From Candidatus Omnitrophota bacterium (GTDB lineage Bacteria; Omnitrophota; Gorgyraeia; JAGLLT01), in the NCBI GenBank assembly GCA_030632085.1, contig DAOVJY010000002.1:248319-312318 (forward strand): 64,000 bases of DNA, read 5' to 3'. Shown one piece after another: positions 4,955-41,214 of this stretch. Numbering within the stretch: the stretch's first letter is position 1; each line of letters begins with the position of its first letter. The notes beneath the pieces were generated by a model. The model made no database searches. It was given only the letters and a program-made list of their open reading frames with translations, and was not told the DNA's origin. The translations under genes were made by a program, and so were the position numbers.

Positions 4955-5524
4955 GTGAAAAATATTACTGAAATCGATGTGATGAAAATTATTGATGACC
5001 ATTTTTCAAAAATACAAGATCGAGAGGCAAAGAATAGGATTCTTCGTTGGGCATGGGAGAAATTCTCAACTCAAGAGCTGCCCTTAGAAAGTGAAGAAAA
5101 AACCAAACAGAAAGATTCTAAAAAGAAAAAAGCACCTAAGAAAAATAATAAACAAAAGAAAAAAGTTAAATCTGGTCCTTGTTTAGTTAAAGATTTAAAC
5201 TTGAGGCCTTCAGGGGAAACAACTTTTAAGCAATTTGTACAAGACAAAAACCCTTCATCAAACCAAGAGAAATGCTTAGTAGCTGCTTATTATTTAAAGC
5301 AAAAACTAAAGAAAAAGACAGATGTCGATTCGATTTATACATGTTTTAAGGATGCGAAATGGCGAGTTCCATCTAATTTGGAAAATACACTTTGTGTTGT
5401 TGCCGTCCAAAAAGGTTGGCTTGATACAACTGACTCTAACGCCATAACAATACCAACCTTAGGTGAAAATTATATAGAACATGATTTGCCCAGAAAAGTA
5501 AAAGGAAAAAATAATCATGGTTAA
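4955..5524 (+). CDS. Hypothetical protein with a long poly-lysine linker (KKKKAPKKNNKQKKKVK) between two small domains
   Basis: ORF with a GGAGG RBS. Overlaps the next gene by 8 nt. Confidence 0.5.
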   Translation: MKNITEIDVMKIIDDHFSKIQDREAKNRILRWAWEKFSTQELPLESEEKTKQKDSKKKKAPKKNNKQKKKVKSGPCLVKDLNLRPSGETTFKQFVQDKNPSSNQEKCLVAAYYLKQKLKKKTDVDSIYTCFKDAKWRVPSNLENTLCVVAVQKGWLDTTDSNAITIPTLGENYIEHDLPRKVKGKNNHG

Positions 5525-6296
5525 AAATGCTTTCAATTTAACAAATTTACTTGGCAGTATTCCAGTTACATTAAAAAATGAATTGGTAAAAACTTTTAAT
5601 GAAATTGCACGAAATTATCGAGAACAACGCTGGGAACCATCGGAGTTAAATGGAGGTAAATATTGTGAGGTTGTTTACACCATTTTAAAAGGGTATACTG
5701 AGGGAAAATTTCCTTCAAAAGCAAGCAAACCGAAGAATATGGTAGATGCTTGCAATAAATTTGAGCAAATTCCTTCATCATCATTTCCGAGGTCAGTAAG
5801 GATTCAAATTCCTAGAATAATCATTGCTCTTTATGAAATACGTAACAATAGAGGCGTGGGGCACGTTGGTGGCGATGTTGACCCAAATCATATGGATGCT
5901 ACAATTGTGCTTTATATGGTTAAATGGATTATGGCTGAGTTGATCCGTTTATTTCATAATGTTAACACTGATATTGCAACTGAAGCAGTAGAACGAATTA
6001 CAGATAGGACTTTGCCTATTTTATGGAAAGTTGGCGGAAAAATTCGTGTGCTTGATACTTCTATTAACATGACAGAAAAGACACTAGTTGTTTTATATTA
6101 TAATCGAGATTCAGTCGCCGAAAATTTATTGGTTGATTGGGTAGAATACACAAATCTTTCTGTATACTGTAGAGACATTTTGCGGAAAGCCCATAAAAAT
6201 AAATTAATTGAATATGATAAAGCAAATAAACAAGTCACAATATCTCCCAAAGGCATAAAATACGTAGAAGATAATATAAATTTGGAAAAATTTTGA
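5517..6296 (+). CDS. Hypothetical protein with a possible HEPN-like R-x6-H motif (IRNNRGVGHVGG)
   Basis: The Rx4-6H spacing matches the HEPN RNase catalytic motif. Located in a defence island. No further homology recognised. Confidence 0.4.
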   Translation: MVKNAFNLTNLLGSIPVTLKNELVKTFNEIARNYREQRWEPSELNGGKYCEVVYTILKGYTEGKFPSKASKPKNMVDACNKFEQIPSSSFPRSVRIQIPRIIIALYEIRNNRGVGHVGGDVDPNHMDATIVLYMVKWIMAELIRLFHNVNTDIATEAVERITDRTLPILWKVGGKIRVLDTSINMTEKTLVVLYYNRDSVAENLLVDWVEYTNLSVYCRDILRKAHKNKLIEYDKANKQVTISPKGIKYVEDNINLEKF

Positions 6297-6765: not shown

Positions 6766-7410
6766 ATGAGTGAGACTATACCTAAAGATCCCAAGATTTA
6801 TCATATTGTACATCTTGATAGATTGGAGTCGATTATTTCTAAACAGTATTTGTTAAGTGATACAGATGGTCAGCAATACGATTTGGACGGTACTACTATA
6901 GGAATGTCGAAAATAAAAGAACGAAGAATGTATAATAATTTTATGAATTATCCAGATCTTTGCGTAGGTGCATGTGTTCCTTTTTATTTTTGTCCACGAT
7001 CGATTATGTTATACATATTTTACGAGAATAATCATCCGGAGATTACGTATCGAGGAGGGCAGGAACCTATTGTTCATTTGGTAGCGGATTTACGTAAAAC
7101 AGTTACGTGGGCGGAATCTTTGGGCAAGCGCTGGGTATTTACTGATTCGAATGCAGGGTCATCCTATTTTAACGATTTTGCAAAATTAAACCAACTTAAT
7201 CAAATTGACTGGAACGCGTTAAGAGCAACATCTTGGTCAGCGGTTAAAGAAAAGAAGCAAGCCGAGTTTTTGATCGAAGAATGCTTTCCTTGGGAATTGA
7301 TAGAATGTATCGGTGTATATTCAATAGTGCAGTACCAACAGGTTGCTCAAGCACTCCAATCAGCAACACATCGACCACCCGTGAAGGTGATGCGTACCTG
7401 GTATTATTAG
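6766..7410 (+). CDS. darT: DarT, DNA ADP-ribosyltransferase toxin (DUF4433)
   Basis: IYHIVHLDRLESII...VPFYFCPRSIMLY...GGQEPIVHLV...FTDSN...EFLIEECFPWELIECIGVYS closely matches the DarT family. Confidence 0.85.
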   Translation: MSETIPKDPKIYHIVHLDRLESIISKQYLLSDTDGQQYDLDGTTIGMSKIKERRMYNNFMNYPDLCVGACVPFYFCPRSIMLYIFYENNHPEITYRGGQEPIVHLVADLRKTVTWAESLGKRWVFTDSNAGSSYFNDFAKLNQLNQIDWNALRATSWSAVKEKKQAEFLIEECFPWELIECIGVYSIVQYQQVAQALQSATHRPPVKVMRTWYY

Positions 7411-7425
7411 AAGGAGGAATGAAAT

Positions 7426-8484
7426 ATGATTATATTTAAAACAGGTAATCTTTTGACCGAAGACGTAGAAGCAATTGTTAATACAGTTAATTGTGTTGGT
7501 ATTATGGGACGAGGAATTGCGCTTCAGTTCAAAAAAAGGTTCCCGGAAAATTTTAAAGTATACGCAGCAGCCTGTAAAAAAAAGGCGATTCTTCCCGGTA
7601 AAATGTTTGTTTATAAGACTGACTCACTTATAAATCCAAAGTATATAATCAGTTTCCCTACAAAGCGGCATTGGCGTGGAGCCAGCAGAATGGAAGATAT
7701 TGAGAATGGTTTGCAGGATTTGGTTAAAGTCATTAAAGATTTGAAGATTCAATCCATCGCCCTACCTCCGCTAGGGTGTGGGCTTGGGGGCCTTGATTGG
7801 AATACGGTACGCGTACGGATTGAATTTGTCCTGAATGAGTTGCGCGATGTCGATGTTGTTGTTTTTGAGCCAAAAGGGGCTCCGACTCCTGAAGAGATGG
7901 TAAAAAACAGGAAAGTACCTAAAATGACTCCTGGGCGCGCAGCATTGGTAGAACTGATGCATCGTTATTTTTTAGGGCTTCTTGATCCCTTTATAACGCT
8001 CCTGGAAGTACACAAATTGATGTATTTCCTTCAAGAAAGCGGAGAGAGCCTTCGTTTACAGTACGCAAAAGCACCATATGGTCCATATGCGAAAAATCTT
8101 CGCCATGTGCTCAATGCTATAGAAGGCCATCTCATTTTTGGTTACGCCGACGGAGAAGATAAGCCGGATAAGCAACTCAAGCTGGTGCCTGGTGCTTATG
8201 AAGATGCGACACGGTTTCTTAATGAGCACAAAGGAACTAAGGAACATTATGACAAAGTATCTGATCTTGTAGACGGATTTGAGACTCCTTTTGGTATGGA
8301 ATTATTATCAACAGTGCATTGGGTAATAACAAAAGAATCAGCACATTCTTTTAGTGAACTTATTACGAAGGTATATGATTGGAATAAGCGCAAGAAGCAG
8401 TTTTCTCAGCGACAGATTCAATTAGCCGTCAAGGTGTTAGAGCAAAAAAAATGGATTAATATTACGAATTGGAGTGAAGTTTAA
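7426..8484 (+). CDS. darG: DarG antitoxin: N-terminal macrodomain (ADP-ribosylglycohydrolase) plus C-terminal DarT-neutralising domain
   Basis: AIVNTVNCVGIMGRGIALQFKKRFPE is a macrodomain signature. Sits immediately downstream of darT. Confidence 0.85.
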   Translation: MIIFKTGNLLTEDVEAIVNTVNCVGIMGRGIALQFKKRFPENFKVYAAACKKKAILPGKMFVYKTDSLINPKYIISFPTKRHWRGASRMEDIENGLQDLVKVIKDLKIQSIALPPLGCGLGGLDWNTVRVRIEFVLNELRDVDVVVFEPKGAPTPEEMVKNRKVPKMTPGRAALVELMHRYFLGLLDPFITLLEVHKLMYFLQESGESLRLQYAKAPYGPYAKNLRHVLNAIEGHLIFGYADGEDKPDKQLKLVPGAYEDATRFLNEHKGTKEHYDKVSDLVDGFETPFGMELLSTVHWVITKESAHSFSELITKVYDWNKRKKQFSQRQIQLAVKVLEQKKWINITNWSEV

Positions 8485-9209: not shown

Positions 9210-9482
9210 ATGGAGAAGGATTTAATAAATATAAAAGCAAGTGAAATTGCCGACTTTGAGTATTGTGAAGTTAGCTGGAGTTTTTCTAATATGCAACAGG
9301 GCGATGTTCAGATAGCTAACTTAAAAAAGGACTTTGCCAAGGGGAGTGTTGCTCATCAAGAACATATTCGAGCAGAAGAGGCGCTAAGTCAACTTATTCG
9401 TTATAAGAATCATGCTAAAGTTATCTTTATTCTATTTGCTTTAGGATTCCTAGTCTATTTACTTTACTTAGTGTGGAGATAA
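9210..9482 (+). CDS. Cas4/RecB-like nuclease, N-terminal half (first Fe-S cysteine, motif I region) ending in a TM helix
   Basis: ASEIADFEYCEVSWSF matches the Cas4 N-terminal S..l..f.yC motif, followed by KGSVAHQEHI (G..H). C-terminal hydrophobic helix FILFALGFLVYLLYLVW. Confidence 0.6.
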   Translation: MEKDLINIKASEIADFEYCEVSWSFSNMQQGDVQIANLKKDFAKGSVAHQEHIRAEEALSQLIRYKNHAKVIFILFALGFLVYLLYLVWR

Positions 9483-9483
9483 G

Positions 9484-10005
9484 ATGTCCATTGTGTTGAC
9501 AATTCTAATATTAGGTTGTTGCGCGCTTTTTTTATATATCTTAATTAAATCATTAATTAACGATAGAAATATAATCTATGTTGGCGATAAGAACAAAGTT
9601 TTAGTATATAATGAGGGAGATATAAGGATTATTGGAAGACCCGATTATATAAAAAGGGAAGAGAATAATTATGTCGCATACGAATATAAGAGCCTAAAAA
9701 TAAAATCCAAAAATGCCTATTTGGATCATAAGTTGCAATTAGCGTGCTATATGCGACTGGTAGAAAAGACCTTTAAACAGAAGCCTGATTATGGAATAAT
9801 TACTTATGGAAACAAGAGAAGATTTAAAATTAGTAATACTTTGGAACTACAGCAGAAATTGGATAAGAGAATCGACAGGCTTAAAGAGCTAAAAACTGGA
9901 AGAGCCGTGCCTGTTAGAAGCCATAATGTGTTTGAGAAATGCTTTGCTTGTAAGTATTATCCTATCTGTAAACACCGATTAGGGAAAAAGAAAATGGAGG
10001 GTTAA
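9484..10005 (+). CDS. Cas4/RecB-like PD-(D/E)xK nuclease, C-terminal half: TM helix, motif II (GRPDYI), motif III (EYK), QhxxY (QLACY), and a C-x2-C-x5-C cluster
   Basis: The motif order and the CFACKYYPIC spacing match the Cas4 4Fe-4S/DUF83 family. Starts 1 nt after the upstream stop, in a different frame. Confidence 0.65.
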   Translation: MSIVLTILILGCCALFLYILIKSLINDRNIIYVGDKNKVLVYNEGDIRIIGRPDYIKREENNYVAYEYKSLKIKSKNAYLDHKLQLACYMRLVEKTFKQKPDYGIITYGNKRRFKISNTLELQQKLDKRIDRLKELKTGRAVPVRSHNVFEKCFACKYYPICKHRLGKKKMEG

Positions 10006-10449: not shown

Positions 10450-10481
10450 GAAAGATAGTTAAGTGTTCTGTCCCCTGAAGT
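10450..10481 (+). repeat. Solo MITE right end (AAAGATAGTTAAGTGTTCTGTCCCCTGAAGTC)
   Basis: 31 of 32 identity to the MITE right end at 6689-6720, with no partner left end nearby. Confidence 0.7.
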
Positions 10482-10494
10482 CTTACAATTCAGT

Positions 10495-10523
10495 TGCTTT
10501 TTTGGCTAATTTTTGGTATAAAT
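10495..10523 (+). promoter_or_regulatory. Conserved strong sigma70 promoter cassette, copy 1: TTGCTT, 17 bp, TGgTATAAAT
   Basis: Near-identical 45-nt block repeated at 17546, 18433 and 20813. Confidence 0.6.
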
Positions 10524-10684
10524 GGGGACATTGGACAGGTTGTATTTTAATGTGGGTAGATATTAAAGCAGTATGGCATTGTGGATGTGAAGAGTATATA
10601 ATTATGGAAGAATATAGAAATATAATAAAGACTCAAATAGAGCTTGCTTTTAATAGGGCAGTAGTGTATATTGTAAATAGCAAA

Positions 10685-10732
10685 CCCGCCGAGCCTCTGC
10701 TTAGCATGCTTAATTTCGGCGGGTATTTTTTT
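10685..10732 (+). terminator. Rho-independent terminator (CCCGCCGAG...TTCGGCGGG followed by T8)
   Basis: GC-rich 8-9 bp stem plus a U-tract, read directly. Confidence 0.65.
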
Positions 10733-10750
10733 GCATACAGAAGGGGGTGC

Positions 10751-10900
10751 TATGGAATATAAAAAGCATCCCCTTACTTATGCGGAACAAGCCGATCTCC
10801 TCATTTCACGCAAACTATCCGCTGACCGTAATGCTCTCATTGAAACGCTTAAAAATGTTAATTATTATCGGAGTTCCGGGGACAGAACACTTAATTATTG
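10751..10900 (+). pseudogene. N-terminal 49-codon fragment of an Abi_2-family (AbiD/AbiF-like) abortive-infection gene, truncated by MITE insertion
   Basis: MEYKKHPLTYAEQADLLISRKLSADRNALIETLKNVNYYRSSG matches the Abi_2 N-terminus (LT.EEQ..LL..RGL....YYRLSGY). The reading frame runs straight into the MITE left IR at 10873. Confidence 0.5.
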
Positions 10901-11198
10901 AAAAGGTGTTGTTGCTTTGATAAAATCTATGTATGACAAGGATAGCGAGAATAGTTGCTTCCAATCACCCCAATCATATAATCCATCGCGGCAATCGCCG
11001 GGAAAAAGTTTTCTTTAATAAAGATGACAAACAGGTGTATCTTCGTGTATTAACTAATCAGGCCAAGAAATCGGGAATAGAATTTTCTTTAGGGGATGAG
11101 AGGTTTATTAAGAAGATTGAAGGAATTACCGGAAAGATATTGCAAAAAAATAGGCCGGGACCTATGCGGAAAGATAGTTAAGTGTTCTGTCCCCGGAA
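10873..11198 (+). mobile_element. Second copy of the RAYT-derived MITE, with terminal inverted repeats
   Basis: About 90% identical to 6392-6720. IRs GGGGACAGAACACTTAA / TTAAGTGTTCTGTCCCC. Confidence 0.75.
10933..11181 (+). pseudogene. RAYT/IS200-like transposase N-terminal fragment (82 aa), copy 2
   Basis: MTRIARIVASNHPNHIIHRGNRREKVFF... is identical in architecture to the fragment at 6453-6701. Confidence 0.7.
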
Positions 11199-11565
11199 TC
11201 TTCCGGAATTTTATAGATCCTGGAAGGCCCAAAAAAGGGAGTTGACCTCTTTTTTTCCTTTTTTTTGGTAAATCTGACATCGGAGTAAACTTTATAAAAC
11301 TCCATAGTTTCTTGGCTAGAAATGAAGGATGTAATATTTTCTGCTTGTAGCCTCACAGAAATTAAATACAACCTCCGCTTGATTATCAGTATTTAGTTTC
11401 GTGTGAACAGCACACATTAATATCTCTTGCATATTCCCCCTTTCAGCGTTAAAATACAAATATTGCAAGTAATTTAATTATAGCGTTACTATAATAAAAT
11501 ATCAGCAATATATTATTAGTTACTCAAGGATAAAATATACTCTCAAAAAATATTAAGTTTTTAAG

Positions 11566-11670
11566 AAAAAAACATAGCATATCCCAAGAAACGTTTGCCA
11601 AAGAAATAAAGATAACATATAGCACTCTCATTAAAATTGAAGTGGGTGCAAGCAAAAATCCTATCTTGTA
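11566..11670 (+). pseudogene. Remnant of an XRE-family HTH regulator (..SQETFAKEIKITYSTLIKIEVGASKNPIL*)
   Basis: The helix-turn-helix core (S.E.LA...G.S...I...E.G...P) is present, but there is no start codon and no N-terminal helix. Confidence 0.35.
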
Positions 11671-11751
11671 AATCTTGCAAACTTTCCAGGGAATCGTTAA
11701 TGCGTTGGAGGTAAAAATAGATGAGTTGGCTCGTAAGTAAAGGGATTAACT

Positions 11752-12342
11752 ATGACTAAAACAGATATTTTGCTTATGTTATTATTTTCAGATAGAGCTG
11801 CTCCGATAGTAGGTACAACCCGCTTACAAAAGCTCTTATTTCTGAGCGAACACGAAAGTGAAGTTAAGTGCGATAAGGAATCTTTTAATTTTGAAGCCTA
11901 CAAGTTTGGGCCAGTGTCTAAAACGCTATACGACGATATTGAGTTTTTAGTAAACGTAGGTTTTTTAGAAAAAACTGGAGAGGACGCAAGTATTGATATA
12001 TATTCTTTAGATGACTTAGATAGTATTAATGTTGAAAATTTAATTGAAACTTCAGAAAACGAAAAAGTAGACCTAATTAGCGAAAAGGAAGAAGGAATAT
12101 TTTCAGAAGATGACGATGAGAACAAAGCTACCACAGAAGATGATCTGACAGTTTATAAAATCACAGATAAAGGTATTGGATACCTAAAAGAAAATAATCT
12201 AATAGGAGCAAAAGAAGCCAAAGAAATAGAAAATATAAAAAAGCGCTATGGAAAGAAATCTCTTATTGAATTATTGCGATATGTATATATGAAATATCCA
12301 AAATATACTACTGAGTCAGAAATAAAAGATGAATTATTATGA
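11752..12342 (+). CDS. Panacea-domain (DUF4065, SocA-like) putative antitoxin PanA with an acidic C-terminal extension
   Basis: TTRLQKLLFLSEHE...FEAYKFGPVSKTLYDDI matches the Panacea signature (KLQKLLYyaq...w.yGPv). Confidence 0.65.
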   Translation: MTKTDILLMLLFSDRAAPIVGTTRLQKLLFLSEHESEVKCDKESFNFEAYKFGPVSKTLYDDIEFLVNVGFLEKTGEDASIDIYSLDDLDSINVENLIETSENEKVDLISEKEEGIFSEDDDENKATTEDDLTVYKITDKGIGYLKENNLIGAKEAKEIENIKKRYGKKSLIELLRYVYMKYPKYTTESEIKDELL

Positions 12343-12884
12343 GTAATGGAAATAAAGAATTCAGTAATATTGGATTTATGCTATCTATTTTTGGGCCTAG
12401 TGCTATTTCTGCAATGTTTGCAATAATTACAAAACCACTCACTGAAAAATCAACCTTTGATGCTTTACGTAAAAACTTTCTAGAAACAATACGATTTCGC
12501 ATGGCTGCCGAGATAGCAGTGATGTTGCCTCCAAAGACAGGAAGAACGGTGAATGATGATTATGTTTCAATGTGTAAAACAAAACTAAATGAATATTTCG
12601 CAAATAATTCTGTTTTGTTGGTTGATTTTTTATACTCGGAAAAGTTATATATGTCCTACGGAAAGCTTTTTATTATATTTAAATACGCTATAGTGCTAAT
12701 TCCAGTGGTAGCTATCTTATGCGGCATCATATTGATTATCTATTTTCGTGATACGCTCAGTATAAAAAATTGTGGATTGTTTGTGTTTTTTTCTCTAGTG
12801 TTTGTTTTTGCAACTTGGCTTTTTAAAGAGCGTCGGCGAGATCAATACAGTGATTTATGTTCAAAATATGAAGTGGTTAAATAG
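12339..12884 (+). CDS. Membrane protein (N-terminal soluble part plus 2-3 TM helices); candidate PanT-type toxin partner
   Basis: ATGA start/stop overlap with the Panacea gene. Hydrophobic helices at residues about 108-170. Confidence 0.4.
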   Translation: MSNGNKEFSNIGFMLSIFGPSAISAMFAIITKPLTEKSTFDALRKNFLETIRFRMAAEIAVMLPPKTGRTVNDDYVSMCKTKLNEYFANNSVLLVDFLYSEKLYMSYGKLFIIFKYAIVLIPVVAILCGIILIIYFRDTLSIKNCGLFVFFSLVFVFATWLFKERRRDQYSDLCSKYEVVK

Positions 12885-13310
12885 GTGACTATTAACACTA
12901 AGTCAAATCCTTCTGAAAAAAAGATAGTAGCAGCGGTGGCTAAATTATTGCGGAAAAATGGGTATATAAATCAAAAAACTGAGGCCCAGATCTGTGAAAG
13001 ATTCATTGATTTAGTCTGTTGGGATAAAAGAAAGAAAAAGATTGTTGCTGTAGAGGCAAAGGTAAAGGCCCCATCAAAAGCATTTGAGCAGGCAATGCGA
13101 TATAGATATGTTGCAGATCATGTGTATGTTGCAATATTGAGAAATGGGTGTAATAAGAGAGCGATAGAATTGTCAGATAGAACTGGAATTGGATTAATTT
13201 TCGTAAGACGCGACTCATTAGAACGTTATTATGCAAAGATAGAAATAGAACCTGTCAAGTCTGAGTTAAAAAACGAAAAGCTTGCAAAGTATTTTTTTAG
13301 TGATGTTTAG
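12885..13310 (+). CDS. Hjc/Mrr-like PD-(D/E)xK nuclease-fold protein (141 aa)
   Basis: E...L...GY...FIDLVCW...IVAVEAKVK reproduces the archaeal Holliday-junction resolvase Hjc motif order (E, D, ExK). GTG start abuts the upstream stop. Confidence 0.45.
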   Translation: MTINTKSNPSEKKIVAAVAKLLRKNGYINQKTEAQICERFIDLVCWDKRKKKIVAVEAKVKAPSKAFEQAMRYRYVADHVYVAILRNGCNKRAIELSDRTGIGLIFVRRDSLERYYAKIEIEPVKSELKNEKLAKYFFSDV

Positions 13311-13331
13311 ATTATAGTGTTGGAGGTTGTT

Positions 13332-14744
13332 ATGGAGAAAAGTTTCTTATTAAGAATTGGTTCTAATGCAGAAAAGCAATATGTAAAAAAAATGGGGTCA
13401 CTTTTTTCAGGATTGGTGGTTAGAGCGAACTATTTTGAATCTGCGCCCGGAATGTTAAGTGCATTATTTTTAAAATTTGATTCTTTAAATCCATCAAAAG
13501 GATTTATTATTGATCCCGTCACGTATGTTTTTATGCTTGACTCAAAATATATCAGAAGCTGGCAAAAGATTAATGGGGAGAAATCGGAGGAAAAAATAAG
13601 AAAAGATTTACATATAGATGTTTCAGAAAATGTCCCAAATGAGTGGGTGCGTACAATACAAGATCCTACCGAAAAGCAAAAAAATAAAGTTGAAATCTAT
13701 AATATAAAAAAGGCTTATCGTAAATTAGCAGATTCCTATTTTACTCCTAACATGGCCCATGAAATAGGGAAACGGTCACTTGTCAAGGAAGATTTTAGTG
13801 AGCAAGATATACGTGAATTTGTAATGAAAGTGATCAATTACCAAGTGCAGGCGATTAGTACGCGGTATGATACAGCAAAATATTCCGATTTTAAAGCTAT
13901 TGTTCCACGCCCGCTGATGATACTTTCGCCCTATTTTTTGATAAGAAATCAAAGTGATTTAGACTTTATGGAAAGAATATGGAAGCGATTTGATTCCCAA
14001 TATACCAGAGATGATGGGGCCATTGTAGTACATTGTGCGGCAGAATTTTTTGAGATTAATTATCGGTCAATTTTAGAAGTTGTAGCTAAATTGAGTAAAA
14101 AAAATATTTTTTTGTGGATTAATAAATTTGACGAAAAAAAAGTTTCATCTACTCAACTTGATGGATATATAAAATTTGTAAGCAGTGCATATGATCAGGG
14201 CATAAGTGTAACTAACCTGTATGCGGGGGGATTATCCTCTTTTCTTTTTCCATTTGGTCTTACTGGAATGGTAAATAATATAGGATATGGTTTGCAGCGT
14301 GATGCTGAACCAGTTCAAGGAGGAATACCAACAGCTCAATTTTATATACCTAAATTACATATTCGCGCACAGGTTTTAGCAACTTACGATTTATTAGTAA
14401 AAAATGAATTAGGCGGTACAGCAAAAGACTTTTATCGTAACGTTTGTTCTTGTCCGATATGTAAAAAAGGAATCCGCGAGGAATTAAGCGATTTTATCAG
14501 TTTTTATGGTGAAGCGGATTATCCTAAAAGCAATTCAGAAAGCTCACGAAAGTATCCAACATCAAAAGCATTAAAGCGATGTTTTTTCCATTTTCTTTTT
14601 TCTAGATTGAAAGAATACAAATGGGCGATAAAGGCAAGTAAGCAGGAAGCAATAGATTTGCTAGATAGCGAAATAGCTTTATGGCGTACCGATAAAGATC
14701 ATCTTCAGAGGATGAGAGATGCGTTAGATGCAATAGCAAAATAG
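13332..14744 (+). CDS. Hypothetical 470-aa protein with a CSCPIC (CxCxxC) motif and a downstream His. The start at 13332 follows a GGAGG RBS.
   Basis: Long ORF, last gene of a four-gene operon. The CxCxxC...H spacing resembles the Zn site of TGT/DpdA-like transglycosylases; this is a weak inference. Confidence 0.5.
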   Translation: MEKSFLLRIGSNAEKQYVKKMGSLFSGLVVRANYFESAPGMLSALFLKFDSLNPSKGFIIDPVTYVFMLDSKYIRSWQKINGEKSEEKIRKDLHIDVSENVPNEWVRTIQDPTEKQKNKVEIYNIKKAYRKLADSYFTPNMAHEIGKRSLVKEDFSEQDIREFVMKVINYQVQAISTRYDTAKYSDFKAIVPRPLMILSPYFLIRNQSDLDFMERIWKRFDSQYTRDDGAIVVHCAAEFFEINYRSILEVVAKLSKKNIFLWINKFDEKKVSSTQLDGYIKFVSSAYDQGISVTNLYAGGLSSFLFPFGLTGMVNNIGYGLQRDAEPVQGGIPTAQFYIPKLHIRAQVLATYDLLVKNELGGTAKDFYRNVCSCPICKKGIREELSDFISFYGEADYPKSNSESSRKYPTSKALKRCFFHFLFSRLKEYKWAIKASKQEAIDLLDSEIALWRTDKDHLQRMRDALDAIAK

Positions 14745-16188: not shown

Positions 16189-17316
16189 TTGAAATTTAAG
16201 GGTGCGGTAGTTGTTTTTATATTAACCCTTGCCGTAATTGGTGGGGGTTTTTGTTTTGCTGAGGATTTTTATTCGGCGCAGGTGCGCGATATATCCGATC
16301 GGGAATATGAGCAGGCTGTTATTGAGTTGATTGATAACGCCCAAGAGTCGATAGTTGTTGGGATGTACTATATCAGTACGCGGTTAAAGGCGAATAATCC
16401 GGTTAAGATGTTGTTGAATGATTTGGTTGAGGCCGAAGAGCGGGGCGTAGAGGTCAAAATATATTTAAATACAAAGTTTCCTGATGTGAGTTATGAAGAG
16501 CTTGTTGGTAGAGATGAATTTAAAAGGCTGCAGGATGCGGGGTGTGAGCTGTATTTTATTCCGCCGGGGCGTAAGCTGCACGATAAAGTTGTTGTTGTGG
16601 ATAGGCGTTATGTGGTTGAGGGGAGTATGAACTGGAGTATTGTAGCGCTCAAGAATAATTTTGAGTCGGTAACGCTGATTAATTCACCGGGGCTTGGTAA
16701 GGAGAAAATAGCAAGGTTAGAGAAGATTTATGAGATACAGAAGAAAAAGGAAGAGGATAAAGAAAGAGAACCTCTTTATATTGATAGTATCATTGAAAAA
16801 ATAGAGGTGAAAAAGGCTTTACTGGAGGATGAGAAGTATTTTCCGATGATGCTTAAGAGAAGTGACCGCAGGGCAATGGACCTGTATCTGATACTGCTTG
16901 CATATAGTAAGAAGTTGGATAAGATTGAGTTTTTCCTCAGATTAGAGGATGTTGGATTGGGACTGGGGTTGCCGGCGTCATGGGATGACGAAGCATTGAG
17001 GCGTCAGGTAATAAGGGCGTTGCGGACGCTGGAGAAAAAGTATAATCTTATAGAAGTTGAGTTTTATCATTCAAGTGACGCATATATAACCATTTTACCT
17101 ATTTTAGGAGAGAGTTTTGCGATAGAGACAAAGAGTATTGGCTCACGTGATAGAAAAATCCCTCAACGGGTTAAGTTTTTGCTCCTGATAAAGGCGCTTT
17201 TGGAGAAAGAGGGCAAGGACTTGGATTCGGTGCCGCAGAAAGAGATTATGCGGCGTTTTCATATCGCGGAGCGGACGCTGGAGAAAGCGATGAATTCACC
17301 AGAGGTGAATGGCTGA
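16189..17316 (+). CDS. Secreted/membrane-anchored phospholipase D-family protein with a single HKD motif (Nuc-like) plus an unknown C-terminal domain
   Basis: N-terminal signal/TM. LHDKVVVVDRRYVVEGSMNWS matches HxK(x4)D(x6)GSxN. Confidence 0.7.
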   Translation: MKFKGAVVVFILTLAVIGGGFCFAEDFYSAQVRDISDREYEQAVIELIDNAQESIVVGMYYISTRLKANNPVKMLLNDLVEAEERGVEVKIYLNTKFPDVSYEELVGRDEFKRLQDAGCELYFIPPGRKLHDKVVVVDRRYVVEGSMNWSIVALKNNFESVTLINSPGLGKEKIARLEKIYEIQKKKEEDKEREPLYIDSIIEKIEVKKALLEDEKYFPMMLKRSDRRAMDLYLILLAYSKKLDKIEFFLRLEDVGLGLGLPASWDDEALRRQVIRALRTLEKKYNLIEVEFYHSSDAYITILPILGESFAIETKSIGSRDRKIPQRVKFLLLIKALLEKEGKDLDSVPQKEIMRRFHIAERTLEKAMNSPEVNG

Positions 17317-39661: not shown

Positions 39662-39739
<78 letters not shown>

Positions 39740-39769
39740 AATTAGCTAATGGCATATGGCTAAGGGCAA

Positions 39770-40135
39770 ATGGTTAAGAAAGTAATGTTTAGATTTGAAA
39801 GTTTGGATATATGGAAACTGGCAATTGAATATGCTGATGGTTTATATGAATTAGCAAAAGGATTGCCAAAAGATGAGAGGTTCAATTTAGTTGATCAGCT
39901 GAAGAGAGCCGCTCTATCAATATCAAATAATATTGCTGAAGGGTCAGGTACTGCAACTAAGAAGAATTTTAGTTCCTTTTTGGATATAAGTTTAGCATCA
40001 GCTTTTGAAACAGTTAACCTTCTATATTTTGCAACTAAGAGAGGTTACATTGCAGAAAAAGAAAGGTTAAAATTTTATAAGAAAGCAGAGTTACTCGTTA
40101 AAAAAATTTGTTCTTTTAAAAAGGCTTTAAATTAG
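39770..40135 (+). CDS. Four-helix-bundle protein (TIGR02436; 23S rRNA intervening-sequence protein family)
   Basis: LAKGLPKDERFNLVDQLKRAALSISNNIAEG matches the family. Confidence 0.75.
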   Translation: MVKKVMFRFESLDIWKLAIEYADGLYELAKGLPKDERFNLVDQLKRAALSISNNIAEGSGTATKKNFSSFLDISLASAFETVNLLYFATKRGYIAEKERLKFYKKAELLVKKICSFKKALN

Positions 40136-40172
40136 TCAGTAATTATAAGCCATATGCTATAAGTTATATGCT

Positions 40173-40254
<82 letters not shown>

Positions 40255-40353
40255 AATTAGCAAATAGCAAATAGCTTATGGCGAATGGCAAATTTTAGCT
40301 ATTAGCTATAAAGTGAGCCGAAGGTGAACAAGCTATAGGCGATAAGCTAAAGT

Positions 40354-40431
40354 GGTGGGTGTAGCTCAGTTGGTTAGAGCGCTGGACTGTGGCTCCGGAG
40401 GCCGGGGGTTCAAATCCCCTCACTCACCCCA
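40354..40431 (+). tRNA. tRNA-His (anticodon GTG) with encoded G-1
   Basis: Loop CTGTGGC; extra 5' G pairs with discriminator C73, which is diagnostic of tRNA-His. Confidence 0.75.
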
Positions 40432-40503
40432 TTTAAGAAGTAAATTTAGTTGTATTAATTGTTGGATTTTATAGAATTCATTTGAAGTAAGAAGTTCATT
40501 AAT

Positions 40504-40580
40504 GCGCCCGTGGCTCAATTGGATAGAGCGGTGGACTTCGAATCCGACGGTTGCAGGTTCGAGTCCTGCCGGGCGCGCCA
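40504..40580 (+). tRNA. tRNA-Arg (anticodon TCG by my reading); first anticodon-stem pair is a G-A mismatch
   Basis: Loop CTTCGAA; same acceptor stem as the Arg(TCT) gene. Confidence 0.55.
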
Positions 40581-40721
40581 TATTTTAGCGTATAGCGTGT
40601 AGAGAATGCGTTGATTTTTAAGAGAGTTATTGGAATATTTGTTTTTTGATGCAAAAATATTTGACCTTTCCAATCGGGTATTGTATAATGAGTGCTTCTA
40701 TAATTAGATTCTTGATAATTT

Positions 40722-40797
40722 GCCCGTATAGCTCAATTGGCAGAGCAGGGGCCTCTTAAGCCCAAGGTTCAAGGTTCAATTCCTTGTGCGGGTACCA
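40722..40797 (+). tRNA. tRNA-Lys (anticodon CTT)
   Basis: Loop CTCTTAA; acceptor stem with two G-U pairs. Confidence 0.65.
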
Positions 40798-40872
40798 ATT
40801 TGGCTAATGGCATATGGCTGATAGCGAATGGCACAAACAATTTGCGATTTGCAATAGGCAATTTGCTAGTTT

Positions 40873-40959
40873 GCGGACGTGGCGGAACTGGCAGACGCGC
40901 AGGATTTAGGATCCTGTCCTAGTGATAGGGTGAGAGTTCGACCCTCTCCGTCCGCACCA
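40873..40959 (+). tRNA. tRNA-Leu (anticodon TAG), long variable arm
   Basis: 87 nt; loop TTTAGGA; class II variable arm. Confidence 0.8.
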
Positions 40960-41009
40960 ATATAGCTAATGGCGTATGGCAAATGGCTAATGGCCAATAG
41001 TTTATAGAT

Positions 41010-41100
41010 AGAAATTATATCGTAGAAGAAAGACTAAAATTTTATGCACAAGCAGAATTACTTATTAAGAAAATTCATTCTTTTAAGAAAAATCTTTGAT
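41010..41100 (+). pseudogene. Remnant (last about 28 codons) of a second four-helix-bundle protein gene
   Basis: ..EERLKFYAQAELLIKKIHSFKKNL* parallels the C-terminus of the 39770-40135 product. The flanking spacer repeats are duplicated too. Confidence 0.5.
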
Positions 41101-41139
41101 TTAACTATATGCTATATGCTATATGCTATTTGCTATTCA

Positions 41140-41214
<75 letters not shown>

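Follow-up and report, generated by a model that had tools for sequence, protein, structure and literature searches.

Do four genes packed tightly on one strand represent a toxin-antitoxin pair with an unrelated neighbor attached, or a single system? This question is raised by positions 11752 to 14744 of a 64,000-nucleotide (nt) stretch of DNA from Candidatus Omnitrophota bacterium (GenBank assembly GCA_030632085.1, contig DAOVJY010000002.1, positions 248,319 to 312,318 of the forward strand), hereafter called the window. An earlier note on this DNA, made from the sequence alone, had read the four genes, here named g1 to g4, as a possible PanAT pair (a Panacea-domain antitoxin with its toxin) plus a separable second, nuclease-based effector. 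We found instead that g1, g3, and g4 form a constant core and that the second position, here called slot 2, is the variable part of the cassette. That the cassette is a defense system is a conclusion we hold with moderate confidence.

The four open reading frames (ORFs) that had been picked out at 11752-14744 were all confirmed on the plus strand (Table 1), and the gene calls of the source assemblies give the same four genes. They are real genes and not chance reading frames, because each of them has conserved full-length homologues. As had been noticed before, g1 and g2 overlap; the overlap between the g1 stop and the g2 start is 4 nt (ATGA). The last two genes had been described as lacking spacers. 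This is true of g3, whose GTG start directly abuts the TAG stop of g2, but not of g4. The longest frame of g4, from the alternative GTG start, encodes 475 amino acids (aa). The ATG start, with the sequence GGAGG just 5' of it, agrees with the 470-aa call of the source assembly and with the starts of the homologues. Therefore, the spacer between g3 and g4 is 21 nt. In a promoter scan, shuffled sequence contained more promoter-like sites than the region itself, and the sole terminator-like site detected there falls inside g4.

Table 1. Coordinates in the window of the four cassette genes and of the gene remnant beside them
Feature	Position	Strand	Description
g1	11752..12342	+	196-aa Panacea/SocA (DUF4065)-type protein; proposed regulator or antitoxin of slot 2
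g2	12339..12884	+	181-aa membrane protein; proposed effector or toxin (slot 2)
g3	12885..13310	+	141-aa predicted PD-(D/E)xK nuclease; GTG start
g4	13332..14744	+	470-aa predicted TIM-barrel protein with zinc subdomain; alternative GTG start at 13317
XRE-type helix-turn-helix (HTH) gene remnant	11540..11740	+	Directly upstream of g1; decayed

The four genes, which had been treated as a module from this single locus, proved to be co-conserved. Among the 42 loci with enough sequence, g1, g3, and g4 were present in the same order in 41, which come from five bacterial lineages and from Nitrosopumilus. This number is made up of all 13 complete, distinct loci of a first set, in which the three genes were detected with hidden Markov models, of locus L020, the closest relative of the cassette in the window, and of 27 metagenome loci out of the 28 whose upstream sequence was long enough. 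The lone exception, L052, is a visibly decayed copy. Across the 36 further metagenome loci, g3 was found directly upstream of g4 in 35 of 35 cases; in locus L003, g3 was present though not called by the source. The same four-gene layout surrounded six g4 relatives at 36 to 50% identity, with unrelated flanks, and also three distant g1 relatives (about 40% identity). In the latter three loci, the third genes match g3, and the last genes, encoding 444 to 447 aa, are 28% identical to g4 (E = 3e-46). Reading frames that overlap or abut are found in other loci too, and g3 and g4 show translational coupling in almost every case. Thus, the cassette is real and co-conserved, a conclusion in which our confidence is high.

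The distribution of the cassette is patchy. When 185,579 species, each represented by one genome, were scanned with two peptide patterns, only 6 loci were found, with hosts belonging to the Phycisphaerales, Ignavibacteria, Armatimonadota, and Bdellovibrionales and including two Nitrosopumilus genomes. Its occurrence in both Nitrosopumilus and several bacterial phyla points to transfer between domains, and the cassette is probably a single operon that has spread horizontally. Decayed copies were seen as well. In an Ignavibacteria locus (L007 at 5028-5569, the same as L014), g2 is split into ORFs of 78 aa and 102 aa, and in L052 (4171-5435), g1 and the 5' end of g2 are gone and the g4 match is limited to residues 2 to 141. 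Many of the contigs that carry the cassette (L020, L023, and L026, for example) are just 3.3 to 4.9 kb long, compared with about 3.0 kb for the cassette itself; it is possible that assemblies break at its borders as the flanks vary between strains.

We then consider slot 2. The g2 product, in which two or three membrane helices had been noticed before, has three hydrophobic segments according to hydropathy, at about residues 11-31, 106-135, and 139-164, the first being the weakest. Its layout consists of one transmembrane (TM) segment, about 75 soluble residues, a second and a third TM segment, and a conserved tail, ERRRDxYxDLCxKYEV. No significant family match was obtained for g2 in the libraries searched. 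A PADLOC match to PycTM (E = 0.039) was nonsignificant and was taken as noise, and this identity was discarded. The topology of g2 recurs in every clade, bacterial and archaeal, with no BLAST similarity between clades. A three-TM protein occupies slot 2 in nearly all loci, but a PIN-domain protein is found there in L053 and L055 (PF01850, 46.1 and 57.4 bits, respectively; cutoff, 23.6), both of which belong to the most distant g4 clade. Because of this replacement, we regard slot 2 as the place of an exchangeable effector. The PanAT pair with a separable second effector does not describe this arrangement, in which g1, g3, and g4 stay and slot 2 changes. A toxin that has a Panacea protein as its partner would be expected to vary in this way. 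The g2 product is a proposed effector or toxin.

The assignment of g1 to the Panacea family was borne out by the profile searches. The signature recognized in the note (RLQKLLFL...FGPVS) is present, as part of TTRLQKLLFL...YKFGPVS. When compared with the Pfam model PF13274 (SocA_Panacea), g1 scored 25.5 bits (E = 2.7e-5), 0.2 bit short of the gathering cutoff of 25.7, and 24 of 42 full-length g1 homologues matched this model at an E value of 1e-3 or lower, the best at 9.7e-8. The homologues of g1 form 131 clusters of proteins of 175 to 205 aa, with E values down to 1e-29 and 100% coverage; many of them carry a precomputed PF13274 match, and their source labels include YwgA, "phage-associated protein," and SocA-domain antitoxin. 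Two blocks are conserved, GTTRLQKLLFL...YKFGPxS..LYDD at the N terminus and YG..SL.ELL.YVY.KYP.YT.ESEIKD at the C terminus. A profile search against PDB sequences with g1 returned nothing. On these sequence features, the membership of g1 in the Panacea/SocA-domain family, as a divergent member, is convincing.

Between the two blocks, g1 has an acidic insert of 54 residues (residues 75 to 128, window 11975-12135) with 19 D/E and 3 K/R. The net charge of g1 is -18, and it ranges from -11 to -19 in the clade of the window. The insert is much reduced in the g1 proteins of clade 2 and absent from the archaeal g1 proteins of 147 to 149 aa. Nucleic acid mimicry by this insert is a possibility. A faint PADLOC match of g1 to the nonmacro part of DarG was also seen (E = 0.0077, profile positions 161 to 257).

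The g3 product is a basic protein (isoelectric point, 9.8), and its homologues form 29 clusters. It is predicted to have the restriction-endonuclease-like alpha/beta core and the D...(D/E)xK motif that characterize the PD-(D/E)xK superfamily. The predicted catalytic residues are E11, D42, E57-x-K59, and Q69, in the motif order E11/E33...D42...E57-x-K59; these residues are invariant, and the motif is intact at all loci. The note had likened g3 to the archaeal Holliday junction resolvase Hjc. The E/D/ExK order on which the comparison was based is indeed present, but g3 is not specifically Hjc-like, its closest relatives being SPO1766 and NucS. An identity with Hjc, which would call for both a profile match to PF01870 and a closest structural similarity to Hjc, was rejected. 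All Pfam scores of g3 were below the gathering cutoff, and a profile search against PDB sequences gave nothing. The g3 product is a predicted restriction-type nuclease.

The largest protein, encoded by g4, had been described as having a CxCxxC motif and no recognizable family. The motif is confirmed as C372-x-C374-x-x-C377. At the sequence level, g4 matched nothing in Pfam, NCBIfam, PADLOC, or PHROGs. Among 5.8 billion proteins, a word-indexed search gave 35 relatives, all of 466 to 498 aa except for one fragment of 277 aa, and no Pfam domain was found among them. A profile of the g4 family collected 799 clusters (representatives at 50% identity) at an E value of 1e-3 or lower, 247 of them at 1e-30 or lower, mostly of 430 to 490 aa. 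In a set of 43 diverse members, no relevant Pfam or PADLOC match was obtained, with one stray match to LmuB. The g4 protein founds a family for which the libraries searched have no model.

The structure model nevertheless suggests a relationship that the sequence searches had not given. The AlphaFold model of g4, with a predicted local distance difference test (pLDDT) value of 91.7 and a predicted template modeling (pTM) score of 0.90, consists of a beta/alpha barrel and, after it, a helical region. When it was searched with Foldseek, the three best alignments, covering about the whole model with a probability of 1.00, were to Thermotoga maritima Tgt and archaeosine tRNA-guanine transglycosylase (TGT). 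The predicted fold is thus a (beta/alpha)8 TIM barrel, and its closest structural counterparts are TGTs. The residues invariant in the g4 alignment are C372-x-C374-x-x-C377 followed by H420, D61-P-x-T-Y65, Y170-Q171, P200-Y201-F202, W262, G299-G300, and Y319-G320. The three cysteines and H420 are invariant across 14 loci, and C374 is only nearly invariant (at least 90%) in the 43-sequence alignment. As judged from the secondary structure of the model, the invariant residues would lie at or just past predicted beta-strands; the C-terminal strand ends form the active-site face of TIM barrels. H420 lies within helix 411-432 of the model, so that the motif has the form of the TGT/DpdA zinc site (CxCx2C...H, the His being part of the last barrel helix), here with a Cys-His spacing of 42, and constitutes a putative metal site. 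The structural zinc site of DpdA is CxCx2Cx22H, also with the His on the last barrel helix, and is conserved across TGTs (PMC10164549). By eye, IIDPVTYV of g4 resembles LTDSGGFQ of Tgt, and LYAGGLS resembles GYAVGGLA; the invariant D61 with Y65 would then correspond, again by eye only, to the first Asp motif of TGTs. On the model, the protein once thought to be without a recognizable family probably has the zinc-motif TIM-barrel fold of TGT, DpdA, and Cap10.

Genes of known defense systems were found next to several cassettes. BREX-type BrxP and PglY flank it in L004, a type IIG restriction-modification enzyme in L003, and a TIR/SEFIR protein with PycTM in L008. In the window, a DarT gene (PF14487, 2e-59) and a macro-domain DarG-like gene form a pair at 6766-8484, about 4 kb upstream of the cassette; DarTG is a known toxin-antitoxin and defense system. 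Genes for a Cas4-like nuclease and for a PLD protein with a probable DrmC match also lie near the cassette in the window. Among 96 flank ORFs, no family was common to more than three.

Taken together, the data incline us, by a modest margin over doubt, to the view that the cassette is one operon that acts as a defense against mobile elements or as a toxin-antitoxin-like system. It may work in the following way. The g3 and g4 products are taken as one nucleic acid module, because their genes are almost always translationally coupled and both proteins are usually basic (g4 in most bacterial loci). They would inspect and cut nucleic acid, the TGT-like pocket of g4 binding a flipped-out or modified base and g3 cleaving. 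In the manner of PanA antitoxins, g1 would bind g2, the membrane effector, directly and thereby keep it inactive. When foreign nucleic acid is met by g3 and g4, or when g1 is titrated or degraded, g2 would be released, depolarize the membrane, and so abort the infection. Our confidence in this specific mechanism is low.

Several results weigh against such a defense role or against the part given to g4 in it. Many flanks consist of housekeeping genes, no integrase was seen, and the cassette was not found in phage genomes, in IMG/VR viral contigs, or, save for one weak partial match, in plasmids. The association with defense genes is suggestive and is based on a raw count, such genes adjoining the cassette at four loci or more (the window, L003, L004, and L008). 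With respect to g4, PF01702, the TGT model of Pfam, matches neither g4 nor its 43 relatives; a profile search found only noise, and nothing relevant, among PDB sequences; and a comparison with Escherichia coli Tgt by hhalign was not significant (probability, 1%; E = 0.05). In this tentative register, the TGT nucleophile (Asp264 in E. coli) falls at Q336 of g4, a position held by K, Q, or R in the family, although the same nonsignificant register still aligns the CxCxxC motifs of the two proteins. According to the model, g4 is a remote member of the TGT/DpdA/Cap10 superfamily, linked to it by fold and zinc motif only.

Could the cassette simply be an addiction module? In this case, g1 and g2 would be a PanAT pair that stabilizes the locus, and g3 and g4 would be cargo with neither a defense role nor a coupling to the pair. 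We consider this unlikely, but it is the alternative that best survives. A Panacea-type protein next to a membrane or PIN partner is what it would require, and the ordinary chromosomal genes in many flanks are compatible with it. However, it is g3 and g4 that are the constant partners of g1, in the 41 of 42 loci described above and in bacteria and archaea alike, whereas the supposed toxin varies. Moreover, all four genes are linked by reading frames that overlap or abut, and cargo would not be expected to remain linked at 22% identity.

A more specific and, to us, rather doubtful version of a defense role makes g4 a TGT-fold reader or glycosylase of unusual bases in invading nucleic acid. The g4 protein would flip out and recognize such a base, the g3 nuclease would cut nearby, and g1 would relay the event and unleash the membrane or PIN effector, in a module shared by bacteria and archaea. 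An example of a target would be the 7-deazaguanines that many phages insert with their own DpdA. DNA containing 7-deazaguanine is common in phages (PMC6884629) and is sensed by the type IV restriction system GrwAB (PMC12137116).

A modification-restriction system of the Dpd kind is improbable, slightly more so than the base reader. According to this explanation, base exchange by g4 would mark self DNA or RNA, g3 would restrict what is unmarked, and g1 and g2 would stabilize the locus or back up the system. It draws on the predicted TGT/DpdA fold and zinc-site motif of g4, on the restriction-type nuclease g3, and on a resemblance, by eye, between the invariant D61-x3-Y65 and the base-contact motif D-S-G-G-Y/F of TGTs and between YAGGLS and YAVGGLA; a GNAT/TGT modification module has also been proposed for BRC systems (PMC12839542). 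Nevertheless, no QueC/D/E-like or DpdB/DpdC-like gene occurs in the cassettes examined, no Asp stands at the position of the covalent nucleophile in the hhalign register, and g4 escapes the TGT Pfam model. In addition, there is no precedent for a restriction enzyme accompanied by both a Panacea protein and a free membrane toxin.

Finally, a poorly annotated housekeeping operon for nucleic acid repair or tRNA modification is very improbable: TGT-fold enzymes and NucS-like nucleases are classically housekeeping proteins and two loci lie near dnaX and recR, but the cassette was found at only 6 loci in the 185,579-species scan with two peptide patterns, occurs in unrelated phyla including archaea with differing flanks, carries a membrane or PIN toxin-like gene together with an antitoxin-family gene, and exists in decayed copies (L052 and L007).

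The proximity to dnaX and recR concerns L001 (9810-12566) and L021 (2651-4782), where these genes lie a few kilobases downstream and g4 is 50% and 72% identical, respectively, to that of the window. This may reflect a shared insertion region or coincidence.

An additional regulatory gene was found at one border of the cassette. In L020, an intact HTH_3 gene encoding 72 aa ends 2 nt before g1. The remnant directly upstream of g1 in the window (Table 1) corresponds to it, with 51% identity in translation (E = 1e-14) and with the DNA also aligned, but its translation contains in-frame stops and its start codon is lost. A search for a counterpart covered the 12 other first-set loci and found none. 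We rejected the idea that the cassette generally includes an XRE regulator as its fifth gene; among the loci searched, this gene is present only in L020 and as the remnant in the window. It is an accessory of the sub-clade of the window, outside the conserved core.

Other features of the window were recorded as well. The window, part of a metagenome scaffold, has about 36% G+C, and nearly all of its long ORFs are on the plus strand; GC skew is positive in every 1-kb bin of 1-64000, and seven tRNA genes are clustered at 39662-41214. Upstream of the cassette, a stand-alone nuclease of 173 aa of the Cas4/PDDEXK_1 type, with a C-terminal cysteine cluster, is encoded within 9210-10005, and a 90-aa ORF whose product has a hydrophobic C terminus precedes it. 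The region at 10463-11700 contains short ORFs only. By eye, 10731-10901 resembles the N terminus of an AbiD/Abi_2-type protein, and 10933-11181 resembles a fragment of an IS200/RAYT-type transposase; neither matched Pfam. This region may be the debris of earlier insertions beside the cassette. Downstream, a PLD-like protein (PLDc_2, 9e-24) with a C-terminal extension of about 200 residues is encoded at 16189-17316. It is probably the source of the PADLOC match to DrmC (9e-17) in an aggregated flank scan, which did not assign matches to single ORFs and which contained more PADLOC matches in unassigned flanks.

If the cassette is a defense system, it would take the Panacea toxin-antitoxin principle beyond gene pairs, to a four-gene machine of fixed composition with a swappable effector, and it would offer a concrete case for Panacea domains as sensors or relays rather than simple plugs. 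Should the abortive-infection reading be true, a Panacea-type module would have been extended by a conserved nuclease and a TGT-like core; should g4 instead be a reader of unusual bases, modification-sensing restriction would be wired to an abortive-infection switch. In each case, g4 defines a sizeable family of about 800 clusters at 50% identity for which Pfam, NCBIfam, and PADLOC have no model.

How does the cassette compare with known systems? Dozens of unrelated toxins are known as partners of Panacea antitoxins, and validated membrane-depolarizing ones are among them (Kurata et al. 2022, PMC8832971; Ernits et al. 2023, PMC10440598). According to mutagenesis, one PanA contacts a region before the TM segment of its toxin, and a sensory role has been proposed for Panacea (PMC8832971, PMC10440598). 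The cassette resembles PanAT in that g1 stands immediately before, and is translationally coupled to, a toxin-like partner that varies between loci (membrane or PIN), and the arrangement predicts that the Panacea gene is cotranscribed with this toxin-like gene of varying family. In contrast to PanAT modules of two, or at most three, genes, the cassette is an operon of four conserved genes, among which the nuclease and the TGT-like protein form an invariant pair. The g2 product, with 181 aa and three TM segments, also differs from the many predicted membrane toxins that the PanAT paper calls small peptides, and g1 lacks any additional HTH, PAD1, or Phd-C domain. The PanAT screen left out neighborhoods suggesting operons of more than three genes (PMC8832971), which may be why the cassette is missing from its catalogue.

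Among defense collections, PADLOC PDC-M19 comes closest to g1. One PDC-M19A model matched residues 7 to 81 (5.5e-16) and a second one residues 142 to 196 (2.2e-5), each match covering only part of a longer profile (294 and 234 positions). No PDC-M19 model was matched by g2, g3, g4, or the 43 g4 relatives, and we found no paper describing PDC-M19. The g3 product can be compared with the C-terminal domain of NucS/EndoMS and with SPO1766 (PDB 3DNX), which are minimal PD-(D/E)xK nucleases. Unlike NucS, it has no N-terminal DNA-binding domain or PCNA-binding motif and is a stand-alone protein, always in an operon with g4. With Hjc, it shares the catalytic order (E, D, ExK) and the small size.

The relatives of g4 in defense are DpdA of Dpd (PDB 7UI4), Cap10 of type IV CBASS (PDB 9NTN), and the TGT of BRC, to none of which g4 has a sequence-level match. 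Unlike these proteins, g4 has an insert of about 130 residues after the strand of D61 and before the following strand of the barrel. Its Cys-to-His spacing is 42 residues, compared with 22 to 25 in TGTs, and the canonical Asp nucleophile is not evident. The zinc-site motif is kept in g4, whereas Cap10 lacks the zinc site. In contrast to Dpd, CBASS, and BRC, the cassette has no QueC-like partner (Cap9), DpdB/C, CD-NTase, or BREX-like partner. Genes for QueC-like proteins, DpdB/C, and CD-NTase were found neither in any cassette nor in the 11 flank sets for which individual genes were listed, nor among the best 25 of about 100 families of the aggregate flank scans.

Literature searches combining Panacea with transglycosylase, YwgA with defense, and TGT with defense island returned no description of the cassette or of the g4 family. 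The domain types are thus already known; it is the four-gene architecture and the g4 family that were not found described in the libraries and papers searched. If the structural assignment and the defense role are both right, g4 would be the fourth use of a TGT fold in immunity, after Dpd, Cap10 of type IV CBASS, and the computationally proposed BRC. Since it would work without a deazaguanine biosynthesis partner, what a TGT-like pocket recognizes beside a nuclease becomes the question.

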